Below are positions 37,192 through 47,403 of a stretch of DNA of 64,000 nucleotides, piece after piece. The notes under the pieces are model-generated. The model worked only from the letters and a program-made list of their open reading frames with translations, was not told the origin of the DNA and made no database searches. The DNA is taken from contig CAVSGM010000005.1 of assembly GCA_963727485.1 (NCBI GenBank), positions 1 to 64,000 on the forward strand. Reading direction: 5' to 3'. Source of the DNA: an uncultured delta proteobacterium. GTDB taxonomy: Bacteria > Myxococcota > Myxococcia > SLRQ01. Within the stretch, counting starts at the first letter, position 1; every line of letters starts with the position of its first letter. A program made the position numbers and the translations under genes.

Positions 37192-37506
37192 ATGTACCTC
37201 GGACGTGTCATCGGCACCTGCGTGGCCACCCAGAAGGTCCCGGGCCTCGAGGGCAGCAAGCTCCTGGTGGTCCAGCCCCTCGACCACGCCGGCCGGAAGA
37301 CCCGGATCCCCGAGATCGCCGTGGACACGGTGCGGGCCGGGGTCGGCGATCACGTCTACCTGGTGGGCAGCCGCGAGGCGGCCGTGGCCCTCGACCCCTG
37401 GTTCGTGCCGGTGGACGCCGCCATCGTGGGCATCGTCGACGCGGTGGACGCCACCGACGACCCAGAGGGCCCCACCCCGTTTCACCGGGCCGGGGAGACG
37501 CCGTGA
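37192..37506 (+). CDS. Bacterial microcompartment vertex protein (BMC-P, EutN/CcmL family)
   Basis: MYLGRVIGTCVATQKVPGLEGSKLLVVQP...AVDTVRAGVGDHVYLVGSREA...PVDAAIVGIVD. Confidence 0.95.
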   Translation: MYLGRVIGTCVATQKVPGLEGSKLLVVQPLDHAGRKTRIPEIAVDTVRAGVGDHVYLVGSREAAVALDPWFVPVDAAIVGIVDAVDATDDPEGPTPFHRAGETP

Positions 37507-37781
37507 GGCTCTGCCGGGTCCTGGGGCCGGTGGTGGCCACCGTGGAGCACCCCAAGTTCCAGGGGCCGGCGATCTTCGCGGTGCAGCCCCTCGACGTCGA
37601 CGGCCTCGCCAGCGGTCCGAGCTTCGTGGCCATGGACCATGCCCAGGCGGGGGTCGGCGACGTGGTGCTGGTCCTCACCGAGGGCAACGGCACCCGGCAG
37701 ATCCTCGGCGACCCGCAGGGGCCGGTGCGCTCGATGATCGTCGGCATCGTCGACGCGGTGGAGCTCGCCGCCGATGGATAG
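37503..37781 (+). CDS. Second BMC vertex protein (EutN/CcmL family)
   Basis: MRLCRVLGPVVATVEHP...VAMDHAQAGVGDVVLVLTEGNGTRQI...PVRSMIVGIVDAV, with a GTGA overlap. Confidence 0.92.
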   Translation: MRLCRVLGPVVATVEHPKFQGPAIFAVQPLDVDGLASGPSFVAMDHAQAGVGDVVLVLTEGNGTRQILGDPQGPVRSMIVGIVDAVELAADG

Positions 37782-38714
37782 GCGCCTCGCCGAGGCGGTG
37801 AGCCAGATGAGCCACCTCCTCTGGGAGCGGGGCTACGTGGCGAACCATGACGGCAACGTCTCCTGTCGCCTCGCCTCCGGCCGCTTCCTCGCCACCCCCA
37901 CCGCCGAGAGCAAGCGCCTCATCGAGCCCGGGTGGCTCCTGGAGGTGGACCCCGGGGGCAAGGTCCTCGCCGGGAAGCGCCGCCTCTTCGGCGAGTGGCA
38001 CCTCCACGCCGCCGCCTACCGGGTGCGCCCGGACGTGCAGGCGGTGATCCACGCCCACCCGCCGCACGCCACCGCCGCCGGCCTCACCGGCCTCGATTCT
38101 GTCCACCCCGCCGCTCCCCGAGGCGGTGGTGTCCCTGGGCCACGTGCCCACCGCCCGGCCGGCGCTCGCCGGGCCCCGAGGCCGCCGACGCCGCCGCCGA
38201 GTGCCTCGAGGTCGACGACGTGGTGCTCCTGCCGGGCAACGGGGTGCTCGCGGTGGGCGACGACCTGGAGCAGGCCTTCCTCCGCCTGGAGCTGGTGGAG
38301 CACCTGGCGCGGATCCTCACCGCCGCCGCGGCCCAGGGGACGGTGCGCCGCCTCCCGCCCGAGGCGGTGGAGGCGCTCCTGGAGAAGCGCGCCAAGGCCG
38401 GCCTCGGGGTGGAGGGCCGCCGGCGGAAGGCCGGGGGGCGTCCCGCGGATCGCCCGGATCCCCAGTCCGCGTCCGTGGTCGCGTCCCGGGCCGGCGCTGG
38501 CGCTGGCGCTGGCGCGACCGGCGCCGGGCCCGCCCGGCAGGTGGCCCTGGCCCGGGCCTCGTCCCTCACCGGGGACGCCCGCCTCGCCCAGCAGATCGCC
38601 GACGAGGTCCTCCGGCGCCTCGGCGACGGTGAGCCCCCGGCCGGCGCGCCTCCCCGCCGGCACCTCCCGGCCCCCGGCTACACCTCGTCGAGGAGCCGGC
38701 CGAGGAGTTCGTAG
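37774..38714 (+). CDS. Class II aldolase/adducin family protein with a C-terminal encapsulation-peptide-like helix, with indels near 38098 and 38168
   Basis: DGNVSCRL, FLATPT, EWHLHAAAYRVRPDVQAVIHAHPPHATA, PEAVVSLGHVP and AFLRLELVEHLARI. After a linker comes DARLAQQIADEVLRRL. Confidence 0.85.
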
Positions 38715-44915: not shown

Positions 44916-46570
44916 GGGGCCCGCCGGTCACCCGGGGCGCCGGTGGGCGCCCGGGGCTCCTGGGCCGGCCCGGAGCGTCGGCGCTGGTGGCCCTGTGGCT
45001 GGGGCTGCTGGTCGCCGGAGCCCTGGCGCCGGCGCGGGCCGCCCAGGACGCGGGGACGCCGGCCGCCAGTCCCGCGGCCACCGCCAGCCCCCCGGCCACA
45101 ACCAGGCCGGCCAGAGTCGCCAAGCCCGCGGCCCCCAAGCAGATCCGCCTCCAGACCCTCCGCGAAGGCATGGAGCCCGTGCCCTTCTGGGAGCGCGGCG
45201 TCTCCTTCCTCGGCCTCTGGGTGATGGTCTTCCTCGGGTGGCTGATGTCCACCGACCGCAAGCGCTTCCCCTGGCGGGTGGTGCTCTGGGGCGTGGGGCT
45301 GCAGCTCGTCTTCGGGGTCTTCGTCCTCGAGACCACCGCCGGCCGGGACCTCTTCGGCTTCCTCAACGACGTGGTGATGCGGCTGCTCGACTTCACCAAC
45401 ATCGGCGCGAAGTTCATCTTCGGCGACTACCTGAACCTCAAGTACAGCTTCGCCCTCAACGTCCTGCCGACCATCATCTTCTTCTCGGCGCTGATGACCG
45501 TCCTCTACCACCTGGGGATCATGCAGTGGGTGGTCAAGGGCTTCGCCTGGCTGATGCAGCGGACCATGGGCACGTCTGGCTCCGAGACCCTCTCGGCGGC
45601 GGCGAACATCTTCGTGGGCCAGACCGAGGCCCCGCTGGTGGTCAAGCCCTTCGTGGAGACCATGACCGAGAGCGAGCTGATGGCGATCATGGTCGGCGGC
45701 TTCGCCACCGTCGCCGGCGGGGTGATGGCCGCCTACGTGGGGATGCTCTCGGGGACCTTCCCGGACATCGCCGGCCACCTCATCGCCGCCAGCGTCATGA
45801 GCGCCCCGGCGGCCCTGGTCCTGGCCAAGGTGATGATCCCCGAGACCGAGGCCTCGGCGACGGCGGGCAGCCTGCGCCTGGAGGTCGACCGCCCCGACGC
45901 CAACGTCATCGACGCCGCGGCCCGGGGCGCCGGCGAGGGGCTCCACCTCGCCCTCAACGTGGGCGCGATGCTCCTGGCCTTCCTCGCCCTCATCGCCCTC
46001 ATCGACTACGTCATCGAGCTCCCGGAGCTGTGGCACAACCGGGCCGCCTGGCACGCGGTGAAGCAGGCCCTCACCGCCCAGGGCCTCGCGCTGCCGGCGG
46101 GCTGCGCCAGGCCCGACGGCGCCGCCGCCTTCCAGCACTGCGTGAACGCCGGGGTCGCCGCCGGCCACCTCGCCCCGGGCGCCCACACCGCCTGGACCCC
46201 CATCTCCCTGGAGCGGATCCTCGGGTGGCTCTTCTGGCCCATCGCCTGGATCATGGGCACCCCCGCCCACGACTGCAGCGCCGTGGCCCGCCTCCTCGGG
46301 GAGAAGCTGGTCCTCAACGAGTTCGTCGCCTACGCCGATCTGGGCAAGCAGCTCCAGCACGGCGTCCACCTCTCCTACCGGGCGGTGGTCATCGCCACCT
46401 ACGCCCTCTGCGGCTTCGCCAACTTCGGGTCCATCGCCATCCAGATCGGCGGCATCGGGGGGATTGCCCCCAGCCGGCGTCATGATCTGGCGCGGATCGG
46501 ACTTCGTGCGATGATCGCGGGGACCCTGGCGGCCTTCATGACCGCCACCGTTGCCGGGATGCTCATCTGA
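44912..46570 (+). CDS. nupC: Concentrative nucleoside transporter (NupC/CNT family)
   Basis: VLPTIIFFSAL, ANIFVGQTEAPL, GFATVAG, ASVMSAP, NEFVAY and YALCGFAN. The start is estimated from a GTGA overlap. Confidence 0.93.
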   Translation: MRGPPVTRGAGGRPGLLGRPGASALVALWLGLLVAGALAPARAAQDAGTPAASPAATASPPATTRPARVAKPAAPKQIRLQTLREGMEPVPFWERGVSFLGLWVMVFLGWLMSTDRKRFPWRVVLWGVGLQLVFGVFVLETTAGRDLFGFLNDVVMRLLDFTNIGAKFIFGDYLNLKYSFALNVLPTIIFFSALMTVLYHLGIMQWVVKGFAWLMQRTMGTSGSETLSAAANIFVGQTEAPLVVKPFVETMTESELMAIMVGGFATVAGGVMAAYVGMLSGTFPDIAGHLIAASVMSAPAALVLAKVMIPETEASATAGSLRLEVDRPDANVIDAAARGAGEGLHLALNVGAMLLAFLALIALIDYVIELPELWHNRAAWHAVKQALTAQGLALPAGCARPDGAAAFQHCVNAGVAAGHLAPGAHTAWTPISLERILGWLFWPIAWIMGTPAHDCSAVARLLGEKLVLNEFVAYADLGKQLQHGVHLSYRAVVIATYALCGFANFGSIAIQIGGIGGIAPSRRHDLARIGLRAMIAGTLAAFMTATVAGMLI

Positions 46571-47403
46571 TGGACCAGAACACCTACGACCTGGTGCAGG
46601 AGGCCGTCGCGGTCGTCCGCGGACTCGGGGGCGAGCCCCCGGCCGTGGGCGTGATCCTCGGCTCGGGCCTCGGCGCCTTCGCCGACGAACTCGAGGACGC
46701 GGTGGCCCGCCCCTACGGCGAGCTGCCCCACTTCCCCCAGAGCGCCGTGGTGGGCCACAAGGGCCGGCTGGTGCTCGGCGGCTGCGGCGGGGTCCCCGTC
46801 GCGGTGATGCAGGGGCGGGTCCACGCCTACGAGGGCTGGACCATGGACCAGGTGGCCTTCGGGGCCCGGGTCCTCTGCGCCCTGGGGGTGAAGGCCCTGG
46901 TGGTGACCAACGCCGCCGGCGGCATCGGCGCGAAGCTCGCCCCCGGCGACCTGCTCCGGATCACCGACCACATCAACCTCGCGGGCCGCAGCCCCCTCAC
47001 CGGGATCAACGACGACCGCCTCGGGCCGCGCTTCCCGGACCTCTCCCACGCCTACGACCCGGACCTCGGCGACCTGGTGGAGCACCTGGCCGACGACGTG
47101 GGGGCGCCGGTGAAGCGCGGGGTCTACGCGTACATGGCGGGGCCGTCCTACGAGACGCCCGCGGAGATCCGCGCGCTCAAGGCCCTGGGCGCCGACGCGG
47201 TGGGGATGTCCACGGTCCCCGAGGTGGTCGCCGCCCGGCACATGGGCGTGCCGGTGGTGGGCATCTCGGTGATCACCAACCTCGCGGCGGGCCTCTCCGA
47301 GAAGGGCCTCTCCCACGAGGAGGTGAAGGAGGTCGCCGACCGGGTGACCGGCCGGTTCCTGGAGCTGCTCCGCCGCTTCATCCCCGCGGCGGTGGCGCAC
47401 TAG
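46570..47403 (+). CDS. punA: Purine-nucleoside phosphorylase (trimeric PunA/XapA type)
   Basis: ILGSGLG, VVGHKG, QGRVHAYEG, TNAAGG, GPSYETPAE, DAVGMSTVPE and ITNLAAG. Confidence 0.93.
   Translation: MDQNTYDLVQEAVAVVRGLGGEPPAVGVILGSGLGAFADELEDAVARPYGELPHFPQSAVVGHKGRLVLGGCGGVPVAVMQGRVHAYEGWTMDQVAFGARVLCALGVKALVVTNAAGGIGAKLAPGDLLRITDHINLAGRSPLTGINDDRLGPRFPDLSHAYDPDLGDLVEHLADDVGAPVKRGVYAYMAGPSYETPAEIRALKALGADAVGMSTVPEVVAARHMGVPVVGISVITNLAAGLSEKGLSHEEVKEVADRVTGRFLELLRRFIPAAVAH

Follow-up and report, generated by a model that had tools for sequence, protein, structure and literature searches.

The microcompartments (BMCs) closest to the one considered here are the type I Haliangium (HO) microcompartments. 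They are encoded by a main locus containing nothing but shell genes and an aldehyde dehydrogenase (AldDH) with an N-terminal encapsulation peptide (EP), and by a satellite locus with two BMC-P genes, a pfam00596 (class II) aldolase and a BMC-Tdp gene; the whole set comprises one BMC-H, three BMC-P, BMC-Ts and BMC-Tdp, a pfam01791 deoxyribose-phosphate aldolase (DeoC) with an EP-like N-terminus, and an EP-like C-terminal tail on about one third of the class II aldolases (PMC8217296). The native reaction of the HO BMC was called enigmatic, and its involvement in nucleic acid catabolism via the EP-bearing DeoC, encoded "in a different genomic location", was proposed (Sutter 2021, PMC8217296). This core idea has therefore been in print since 2021; what is new here is the linkage. 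SPU BMCs also combine DeoC with an acylating AldDH and a BMC-P triplet (PMC4207490, PMC11585597). Their DeoC (DERA) belongs to pfam01791 as well, with an intact active site and an N-terminal extension of ~70 residues that opens with an amphipathic helix, and one SPU enzyme extended in this way has catalytic activity (PMC11585597). RpiB (pfam02502) is found in the BMC locus of six of the seven SPU subtypes; SPU5, like the loci described below, lacks it, and its class II aldolase bears a C-terminal EP. Furthermore, SPU-type microcompartments of Hodarchaeales were acquired from Myxococcota, and exogenous DNA was proposed as a nutrient (preprint PMC12747264). These share DERA, AldDH and the proposed use of exogenous DNA with the present system but are encoded by one operon that also includes PTAC, MNdh and Flav-DERA, possess DNA-binding tails on a BMC-P, and are not split between loci as in the HO type; the text of the preprint mentions neither ComE nor nuclease nor Haliangium.

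The window (the whole stretch of 64,000 nucleotides analysed) belongs to contig C5 of a 93%-complete genome, designated G000 (other G numbers denote related genomes, and C1, C2, C4 and C9 further contigs of G000). All genes listed for the 10-kb region by the first-pass annotation are present, as judged from Pfam and NCBIfam profile matches (Table 1). They form at least five transcription units and not a single operon. A TPR gene on the opposite strand, missing from the original list, separates deoC from deoA; no such gene is found between them in the sister genome G003. A scan of this GC-rich stretch for sigma-70 promoters and terminators was uninformative.

Table 1. Features of the 10-kb region (coordinates of the window)
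Feature	Position	Strand	Basis
BMC-P 1 (pentameric vertex protein)	37192..37506	+	PF03319, E 2e-26 (EutN/CcmL)
BMC-P 2	37503..37781	+	PF03319, E 3e-22 (EutN/CcmL)
HO-type class II aldolase	37774..38714	+	PF00596 in two frames
C-terminal amphipathic, EP-like helix of class II aldolase	38580..38627	+	hydrophobic moment 0.68
FHA-domain protein, last gene of minus-strand operon	38678..39217	-	PF00498; overlaps comEA
ComEA-like DNA-binding protein, three HhH units	39199..40107	-	PF12836 x3 (three HHH_3 stretches), TIGR01259
DUF3006 protein	40104..40361	-	PF11213
Stand-alone ComEC-C-terminal-type metallo-beta-lactamase-fold (MBL) protein	40358..41260	-	TIGR00361, C-terminal part
DeoC, ~70-residue N-terminal extension	41327..42202	+	TIGR00126, 273 bits (cut-off 117)
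N-terminal amphipathic, EP-like helix of DeoC	41327..41392	+	residues 2-22 helical in AlphaFold model; hydrophobic moment 0.78
Cys-rich motif of DeoC extension (C29, C36, C42; consensus CxxCxxC)	41411..41452	+	alignment
TPR protein, between deoC and deoA	42213 to ~43406	-	TPR families (Pfam)
Thymidine/pyrimidine-nucleoside phosphorylase (deoA/pdp)	43611..44915	+	NF004490, TIGR02644 over cut-off
NupC-family nucleoside transporter, start codon uncertain	44927..46570	+	PF01773, PF07670, PF07662
Purine-nucleoside phosphorylase (PNP I type)	46570..47403	+	NF006054, TIGR01700 over cut-off

The two BMC-P genes and the pfam00596 aldolase (37192-38714) are the satellite locus known from the literature for type I HO microcompartments. 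The first-pass annotation had regarded this region as a satellite, and the main HO-type locus was found on C2 (574.7-578.2 kb). It consists only of shell genes and AldDH in the order BMC-Tdp, BMC-H, BMC-P, AldDH, BMC-Ts, thus providing BMC-H, two BMC-T and the third BMC-P. The AldDH is of the acylating type (NF011927, 633 bits, cut-off 403); its N-terminal extension has an EP-like pattern by eye, but a hydrophobic moment of just 0.29. In total, the genome possesses three PF03319 matches, one BMC-Ts and one BMC-H, the best native PDB match of the latter being HO-5815 (E 4e-46). The BMC-Tdp gene of the main locus is frameshifted in the G000 assembly and intact in G003. It is the only BMC-Tdp gene detected: a second, satellite one was not found in the 93%-complete genome with queries other than a satellite-type Tdp. 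Extra PF00936 matches of G065 and G073, which we presume to be EutL-like, retrieved nothing in G000 when used as stand-ins for such queries. Differently from SPU BMCs, neither BMC locus contains RpiB (two ordinary RpiB genes, one without N-terminal extension, are located far from both loci at C4:15271 and C2:1858187), no PTAC was found in G000, and the locus is split, with AldDH on C2 and deoC on C5.

BMC-P genes are present in 91 of 251 genomes of the phylum, so the organelle is common. DeoC was found in all 80 BMC-positive genomes tested, but also in 34 of 40 BMC-negative genomes, most of them drawn from other classes, and its presence alone is therefore uninformative. Whereas the published DeoC lies elsewhere in the genome (PMC8217296), in the window and in roughly half the tested genomes deoC is found within 10.5 kb of the satellite or directly adjacent to it: 39 of the 76 genomes with both genes have deoC at this distance from the HO aldolase, 28 of them adjacent (30 of 65, 19 adjacent, if the RpiB-containing family f12 is left out). 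No linkage exists in the other 37, the single-contig genomes G198 and G218 among them. Unlike in the published HO placement (PMC8217296), the satellite-linked deoC is often accompanied by deoA, pnp, nupC or deoB. Of 54 loci, 7 show the order BMC-P, BMC-P, aldolase, deoC followed by deoA and pnp; they belong to two families (G002, G003, G073, G093, G101, G105, G117). The deoB gene directly follows deoC in G025, G043, G150, G190 and G237 and is located inside the BMC locus of G052. Synteny of the BMC-P/aldolase genes with deoC and the nucleoside phosphorylases is thus conserved across the phylum, from which we infer that deoxyribose-5-phosphate is the probable HO substrate. No earlier report of this linkage or of the Cys motif described below appeared among the papers listed in literature searches; the locus diagrams in PMC8217296 may show deoC beside HO satellites, and the motif goes unmentioned in the sections consulted of that paper.

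The catalytic residues of DeoC (D160, K222, K251) are present in invariant alignment columns. As had been noticed initially, both aldolases carry terminal EP-like amphipathic helices, with hydrophobic moments of 0.78 (DeoC N-terminus) and 0.68 (class II aldolase C-terminus); nowhere in the DeoC core does the moment exceed 0.62. The DeoC helix persists, judged by eye, in ~17 DeoCs of BMC-negative genomes; for this reason the helix alone is weak evidence and does not suffice as a proof of encapsulation. The Cys-rich extension is present in 50 of 54 BMC-positive (exceptions: G239, G049, G083, G099) vs. 3 of 53 BMC-negative genomes (e.g., G050, 92% complete), a contrast for which a contingency p-value overstates the association, as related genomes are not independent. 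C36 is invariant among the 30 aligned BMC-positive sequences. In a quick tree, DeoCs of BMC-negative genomes branch from within BMC-positive groups at several points. The Cys-bearing extension thus tracks the BMC and is lost when the organelle is lost. The motif is possibly a metal site; note that pLDDT is below 50 across this region, making the AlphaFold model uninformative on this point.

The class II aldolase gene is broken over three frames in the G000 assembly. However, contigs of three runs, each from a different study, are one base shorter at 38097 and again at 38167/38174, and the aldolases of all 31 relatives examined are encoded in a single uninterrupted frame. The frameshifts are thus very probably single-base assembly insertions, and we rejected the view that the gene is a pseudogene. 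This enzyme could be the true signature enzyme of the organelle. Its substrate would be a pentulose- or deoxyhexulose-1-phosphate (ribulose-1-phosphate, fuculose-1-phosphate or, as with DrdA, 5-deoxyribulose-1-phosphate), split into DHAP and an aldehyde, while DeoC would be cytosolic, its position and helix being relics of an ancestral gene order. Indeed, 76 of 80 BMC-positive genomes have the aldolase, and it directly follows the two BMC-P genes in each of the six complete satellite loci analysed, three of which have deoC elsewhere; the isomerase gene required for such a route, mtnA, is present in the genome, DrdA converts 5-deoxyribulose-1-phosphate into acetaldehyde (PMC6079011), and the DeoC helix outlives BMC loss. 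Nevertheless, we regard this scenario as improbable. Of the FucA residues, E73, H92 and H94 are conserved but H155, the third metal-binding His, is replaced by Asn (alignment of the G003 orthologue with FucA); at this position 22 of 31 relatives have Asn and seven His (two could not be parsed), suggesting reduced or altered aldolase catalysis. EP-like tails are present in only roughly one third of these aldolases (~11 of 31, by eye), pure hitch-hiking does not explain why the Cys module of DeoC disappears together with the BMC, and one aldolase as cargo does not exclude the other.

In E. coli and Bacillus, nucleoside salvage involves the deo genes (deoC, deoA, deoB, deoD) and nupC-pdp. The present cluster resembles them in having deoC together with pyrimidine and purine nucleoside phosphorylases and NupC (433 bits with the family profile, slightly below the cut-off of 442, with all three Pfam domains present) but differs in the absence of deoB, in the BMC-type extension of DeoC and in the linkage to shell genes. 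A cytidine deaminase homologue is also present in G000. The genome-wide search proposed by the first-pass annotation recovered PF00936 shell genes, AldDH and RpiB, but not the canonical phosphopentomutase DeoB: TIGR01696 had no match in G000, and the sole PF01676 match is another metalloenzyme. Of 64 deoC loci, 19 contain a PGM/PMM-family gene, and none of the 17 genomes searched among those with this arrangement has a DeoB over the cut-off. The G000 orthologue (C1:794319-795950; 51-52% identity) is, from gene order, likely to stand in for DeoB.

The minus-strand operon between the aldolase and deoC encodes a predicted nuclease/phosphodiesterase. The best PDB matches of the MBL protein, which has a signal-peptide-like N-terminus, are beta-lactamase-like domains of ComEC (9ic4, E 3e-46, residues 24-277, metal-binding motifs aligned), and the C-terminal domain of ComEC is a Mn-dependent nuclease (PMC8579336). 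The operon shares the MBL fold, ComEC-type motifs and HhH DNA-binding repeats with ComEC/ComEA (PMC8579336; 9ic4), whereas here the predicted nuclease stands alone, has its own signal-like N-terminus and shares its operon with DUF3006 and a ComEA of three HhH units. The latter has a hydrophobic, signal-peptide-like N-terminus, and its multi-HhH form was detected in only 3 of 121 genomes of the class (E<=1e-22), all of them in family f1. For the FHA protein, there is no evidence of a BMC role.

The first-pass annotation viewed the whole 10 kb as a single, co-regulated system for DNA foraging: ComEA would capture DNA, MBL would degrade it, and the products would enter the BMC via NupC and the phosphorylases. 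Its satellite locus and deoC linkage are supported, but a dedicated DNA-foraging unit owned by the BMC is not. The divergent MBL and deoC starts, 66 bp apart, could allow shared regulation, the MBL protein is related to a nuclease, a 5'-nucleotidase gene is present in the window (3837-6068), and MBL adjoins deoC in 14 of 64 loci. However, MBL is found at deoC in 8 of 54 BMC-positive vs. 6 of 10 BMC-negative loci (in the latter divergent from deoC), and ComEA in none of the 54 BMC-positive ones. The complete MBL-DUF3006-comEA operon is kept, next to deoA-pnp, in the BMC-negative G001 of the same family; in G004, operon and BMC locus are on different contigs; the BMC-deoC-deoA-nupC-pnp block of G003 lacks both MBL and comEA, and in G002 MBL is present but comEA is missing. 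The foraging arm is not BMC-specific, being also present in relatives without the organelle, and a single system is quite unlikely. It is likewise unlikely, if slightly less so, that the HO BMC is a nucleic-acid-sugar metabolosome ancestral to Myxococcota, with a BMC-P-BMC-P-aldolase-deoC(-deoB/deoA/pnp) operon and a Cys-rich metal-binding DeoC module, and that in this family a divergent promoter ties it to a triple-HhH DNA receptor and a secreted nuclease, as a full route from external or prey DNA to aldol cleavage inside the shell. Alternatively, the operon may serve natural competence or DNA handling in the envelope (a ComEA receptor plus a free ComEC nuclease domain) as a lineage-specific, non-nutritional insertion. 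Only two families have it, its movements are independent of those of the BMC genes, and a full-length ComEC with an MBL domain (C9) and two further ComEA-like genes (C2) are encoded in the genome. This ComEC already has a nuclease domain of its own, though, and the persistent adjacency of MBL to deoC or deoA in two families favours a nutritional link; we therefore consider competence somewhat unlikely. It would in any case account for the middle operon only and is compatible with the reading that we prefer.

According to this preferred reading, to which we assign a probability of about 70%, a type I HO satellite locus still lies beside deoC, and the organelle probably encapsulates DeoC, cleaves nucleoside-derived deoxyribose-5-phosphate and passes the acetaldehyde to a shell-associated acylating AldDH. 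Genes for BMC-H, Tdp, Ts, three BMC-P, AldDH, the extended DeoC, NupC and both phosphorylases are all present in G000. Nucleosides would be imported by NupC and converted by DeoA and PNP in the cytosol to deoxyribose-1-phosphate, which the PGM/PMM-family mutase would isomerize in place of DeoB. Deoxyribose-5-phosphate would then enter the shell, where DeoC would produce glyceraldehyde-3-phosphate and acetaldehyde, and AldDH would convert the latter to acetyl-CoA. As no PTAC was found, acetyl-CoA would have to exit the shell. The class II aldolase may be a second aldehyde source (e.g., from a pentulose-1-phosphate) or a structural partner. The MBL-DUF3006-comEA-FHA operon would be a separate, BMC-independent extracytoplasmic module for DNA binding and degradation, which may supply nucleosides.

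Work on BMC structure and engineering uses the HO shell more than any other model. Our data turn a published guess about its function into a concrete test, with deoxyribose-5-phosphate as substrate, the extended DeoC as cargo and named feeder genes, and the Cys motif may serve as a sequence marker predicting shell-bound DeoCs. If this is true, many myxobacteria would use an organelle to recycle DNA sugars from prey or dead cells, and the lineages that lost the organelle would have kept a cytosolic version of the pathway.

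Domain searches with Pfam and NCBIfam recovered every gene listed for this locus in the first-pass annotation: two genes for the bacterial microcompartment (BMC) vertex protein BMC-P, a class II aldolase, an FHA protein, a ComEA with three HhH motifs, a DUF3006 protein, a stand-alone metallo-beta-lactamase-fold protein of the ComEC C-terminal type (MBL), DeoC, thymidine phosphorylase (DeoA), NupC and purine-nucleoside phosphorylase (Pnp), followed by rpmE and ligA. DeoC, DeoA and Pnp score above the NCBIfam cut-offs, and NupC slightly below. At least five transcription units can be distinguished, and the MBL and deoC genes are divergent with 66 bp between their starts. 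A more distant 5'-nucleotidase/metallophosphoesterase could supply nucleosides.

Features of the window and frameshifted genes elsewhere in the source genome (units defined by strand order and spacing)
Feature	Position	Strand	Remark
IS-type integrase core fragment	179-592	+	at contig start
5'-nucleotidase/metallophosphoesterase gene	3837-6068	-	31 kb upstream of the locus
Unit TPR-P-P-aldolase		+
Unit MBL-DUF3006-comEA-FHA		-
Unit deoC		+
Unit TPR gene		-	missing from the first-pass list
Unit deoA-nupC-pnp		+
Acylphosphatase gene	50309-50605	+	directly 3' of ligA
Type III export/flagellar-switch family genes (FHIPEP, FlhB-like, export family 1, FliM/N)	57590-63940	-
BMC-Tdp gene, main locus	G000:C2:574718-575351 (L008:8719-9352)		frameshifted in the assembly
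Second frameshift-like ORF	L008, about 15259-17640

The source genome (G000; 93% complete, 14 contigs) possesses a single main BMC locus on contig C2, which encodes BMC-Tdp, BMC-H, BMC-P, a 527-aa acylating aldehyde dehydrogenase (AldDH) and BMC-Ts. The best native PDB match of its BMC-H is HO-5815 of Haliangium ochraceum. Shell genes and AldDH, which were to be sought outside the window, are thus present; of the two other enzymes to be looked for, RpiB is encoded twice, distant from both the main and the satellite locus, and DeoB was not found in this genome. Neither a second BMC-Tdp nor PTAC was found in the 93%-complete assembly, and the shell set of the H. ochraceum (HO) type is complete except for one Tdp. 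HO BMCs were defined from 41 loci, and in type I the main locus combines shell genes with AldDH, while the satellite consists of two BMC-P and a pfam00596 aldolase, with a possible C-terminal encapsulation peptide in about a third (PMC8217296). The same paper proposed nucleic-acid catabolism by a DeoC bearing an encapsulation peptide, so both the locus type and the hypothesis are already known. The layout in G000 matches type I, whereas it departs from that of sugar-phosphate utilising (SPU) BMCs on two criteria, although the compartment probably works like an SPU metabolosome.

BMC-P is encoded in 91 of 251 genomes of the phylum (including G000 and G166). We searched 80 BMC-positive genomes (79 of this set and G004; G166 and the ten most fragmented were left out): all 80 possess deoC, and 76 the HO-type aldolase. 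These two genes lie within 1.5 kb of each other in 28 of the 76, within 10.5 kb in 11 more, and are unlinked in 37; without family f12, whose examined loci hold RpiB and look SPU-like, the numbers are 19, 11 and 35 (n = 65). Unlinked genes are often on separate contigs, yet they are far apart also in the single-contig genomes G198 and G218. In neighbourhoods of up to 20 kb around deoC, 54 BMC-positive genomes, chosen to spread over families, had a BMC gene in 30 cases, deoA in 16, pnp in 14, MBL in 8, nupC in 7 and comEA in none; ten BMC-negative genomes had MBL and deoA in 6 each, pnp in 2 and comEA in none. G002 and the sister genome G003 share the order P-P-aldolase-deoC-deoA-pnp, in both cases together with nupC; five members of the distant family f14 have this order too. 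The proposed connection of the BMC with deoC is correct, and the satellite is frequently linked to deoC and salvage genes. Furthermore, a GYF/zinc-ribbon gene found 5' of the BMC-P pair in BMC-positive genomes is still near deoC in five BMC-negative ones, which is consistent with loss of shell genes from an ancestral site.

Other arrangements occur as well. L011, L078 and L082 (G004, G042 and G052) look SPU-like and unite Ts, P, rpiB, P, H and deoC in a single locus; the N-terminal region of DeoC is roughly 280 residues long there, and AldDH is included in G042 and G052. G004 has this different BMC type although it is from the same family as the window. In G065 (L187, C37) and G073 (L188, C129), EutL-like BMC-T genes stand apart from the main locus, like the "EUT module" reported from some HO genomes.

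The first-pass annotation went further and proposed a candidate BMC-coupled DNA-foraging system; this overreaches, given the lack of comEA in the 54 BMC-positive neighbourhoods. The position of the MBL-DUF3006-comEA-FHA operon is real, since read contigs bridge its junctions (near-identical ones for FHA-comEA, more divergent ones for comEA-DUF3006 and DUF3006-MBL). Multi-HhH ComEA was found only in 3 of 121 genomes of the class, all of the window's family. G001 lacks BMC-P, and its comEA-DUF3006-MBL genes adjoin deoA-pnp-rpmE; in G004 the operon and the BMC locus are on different contigs; and G003 has the BMC-salvage block without MBL-DUF3006-comEA. By this distribution, it is nucleoside salvage and not the BMC that the operon accompanies in two families. 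Its MBL protein is a predicted nuclease. A full ComEC is encoded on C9 and a cytidine deaminase homologue on C11. In family f2 (L105, G024; L068, G205; L012, G023), DUF3006-MBL-MBL is transcribed divergently to deoC-dksA-PGM/PMM, whether or not a BMC is present; in G024, a short domain containing Cys terminates both MBL paralogues.

The DeoC model consists of a helix (residues 2-22), a low-confidence Cys region, a second helix (47-55) and the barrel; residues 52-63 resemble residues 264-275 of the same protein (6 of 12 identical). The first helix is not diagnostic of a BMC, because by eye about 17 BMC-negative DeoCs, mostly of one clade, retain one. Three Cys within 25 residues upstream of the DeoC core were present in 50 of 54 BMC-positive versus 3 of 53 BMC-negative proteins (raw counts from related genomes; the unparsed BMC-negative DeoC of G086 was scored as lacking the motif). 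We judge two of these three matches to be upstream of the probable start; one is genuine (G050). The Cys cluster is more telling than the helix. The association does not appear to be one event, since in a quick DeoC tree with modest support BMC-negative rows nest among BMC-positive ones at several places (12 label changes). In the BMC-positive G083:C209 and G099:C153 (L083-L094 region), P-P-aldolase-deoC are adjacent and DeoC keeps the helix with a Cys-free linker, and therefore the motif is dispensable in some shells. The N-terminus of SPU DeoCs is extended by about 70 residues, and one of these enzymes is active (PMC11585597); four mentions of cysteine in that paper concern RPI. We infer that DeoC is encapsulated and that deoxyribose-5-phosphate is the substrate.

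The aldolase ORF is spread over three frames in the assembly. Contigs from three of four sequencing runs (three studies) have one base fewer at 38097 and one at 38167 or 38174; in a 245-base contig, the only differences from the window are one substitution and the same two gaps. Although each run contributes one low-depth contig, these agree with each other and with intact orthologues, and we therefore treat the gene as intact. Further ORFs on C2 look frameshifted (BMC-Tdp is intact in G003), and indel errors are therefore likely to be numerous in the assembly. In the alignment of the G003 orthologue, FucA residues E73, H92 and H94 are kept and H155 is replaced by Asn, the same motif being present in the window; among 31 relatives this position is Asn in 22, His in 7 and was not parsed in 2. 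The protein may be a weakened enzyme, a retuned enzyme or a packing partner comparable to the near-inactive RPI of SPU BMCs (PMC11585597). As mtnA is present (C3), a DrdA-like reaction, forming acetaldehyde from 5-deoxyribulose-1-phosphate, is possible. In two BMC-negative genomes of family f12 (L159, G113:C4; L160, G088:C15), deoC without an extension adjoins the class II aldolase; these may be two aldolases cooperating without a shell, or a remnant.

True DeoB scored above the cut-off in 11 of 64 genomes; its gene is directly 3' of deoC in five BMC-positive genomes and inside the BMC locus in G052. A PGM/PMM gene lies within the deoC locus in 19 of 64, and one of three PGM/PMM genes of G000, on C1, encodes its orthologue (51-52% identical), a candidate phosphopentomutase that would substitute for DeoB.

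The kind of system is already known and the hypothesis has been published; what the genome comparison contributes is a way to test the question directly.
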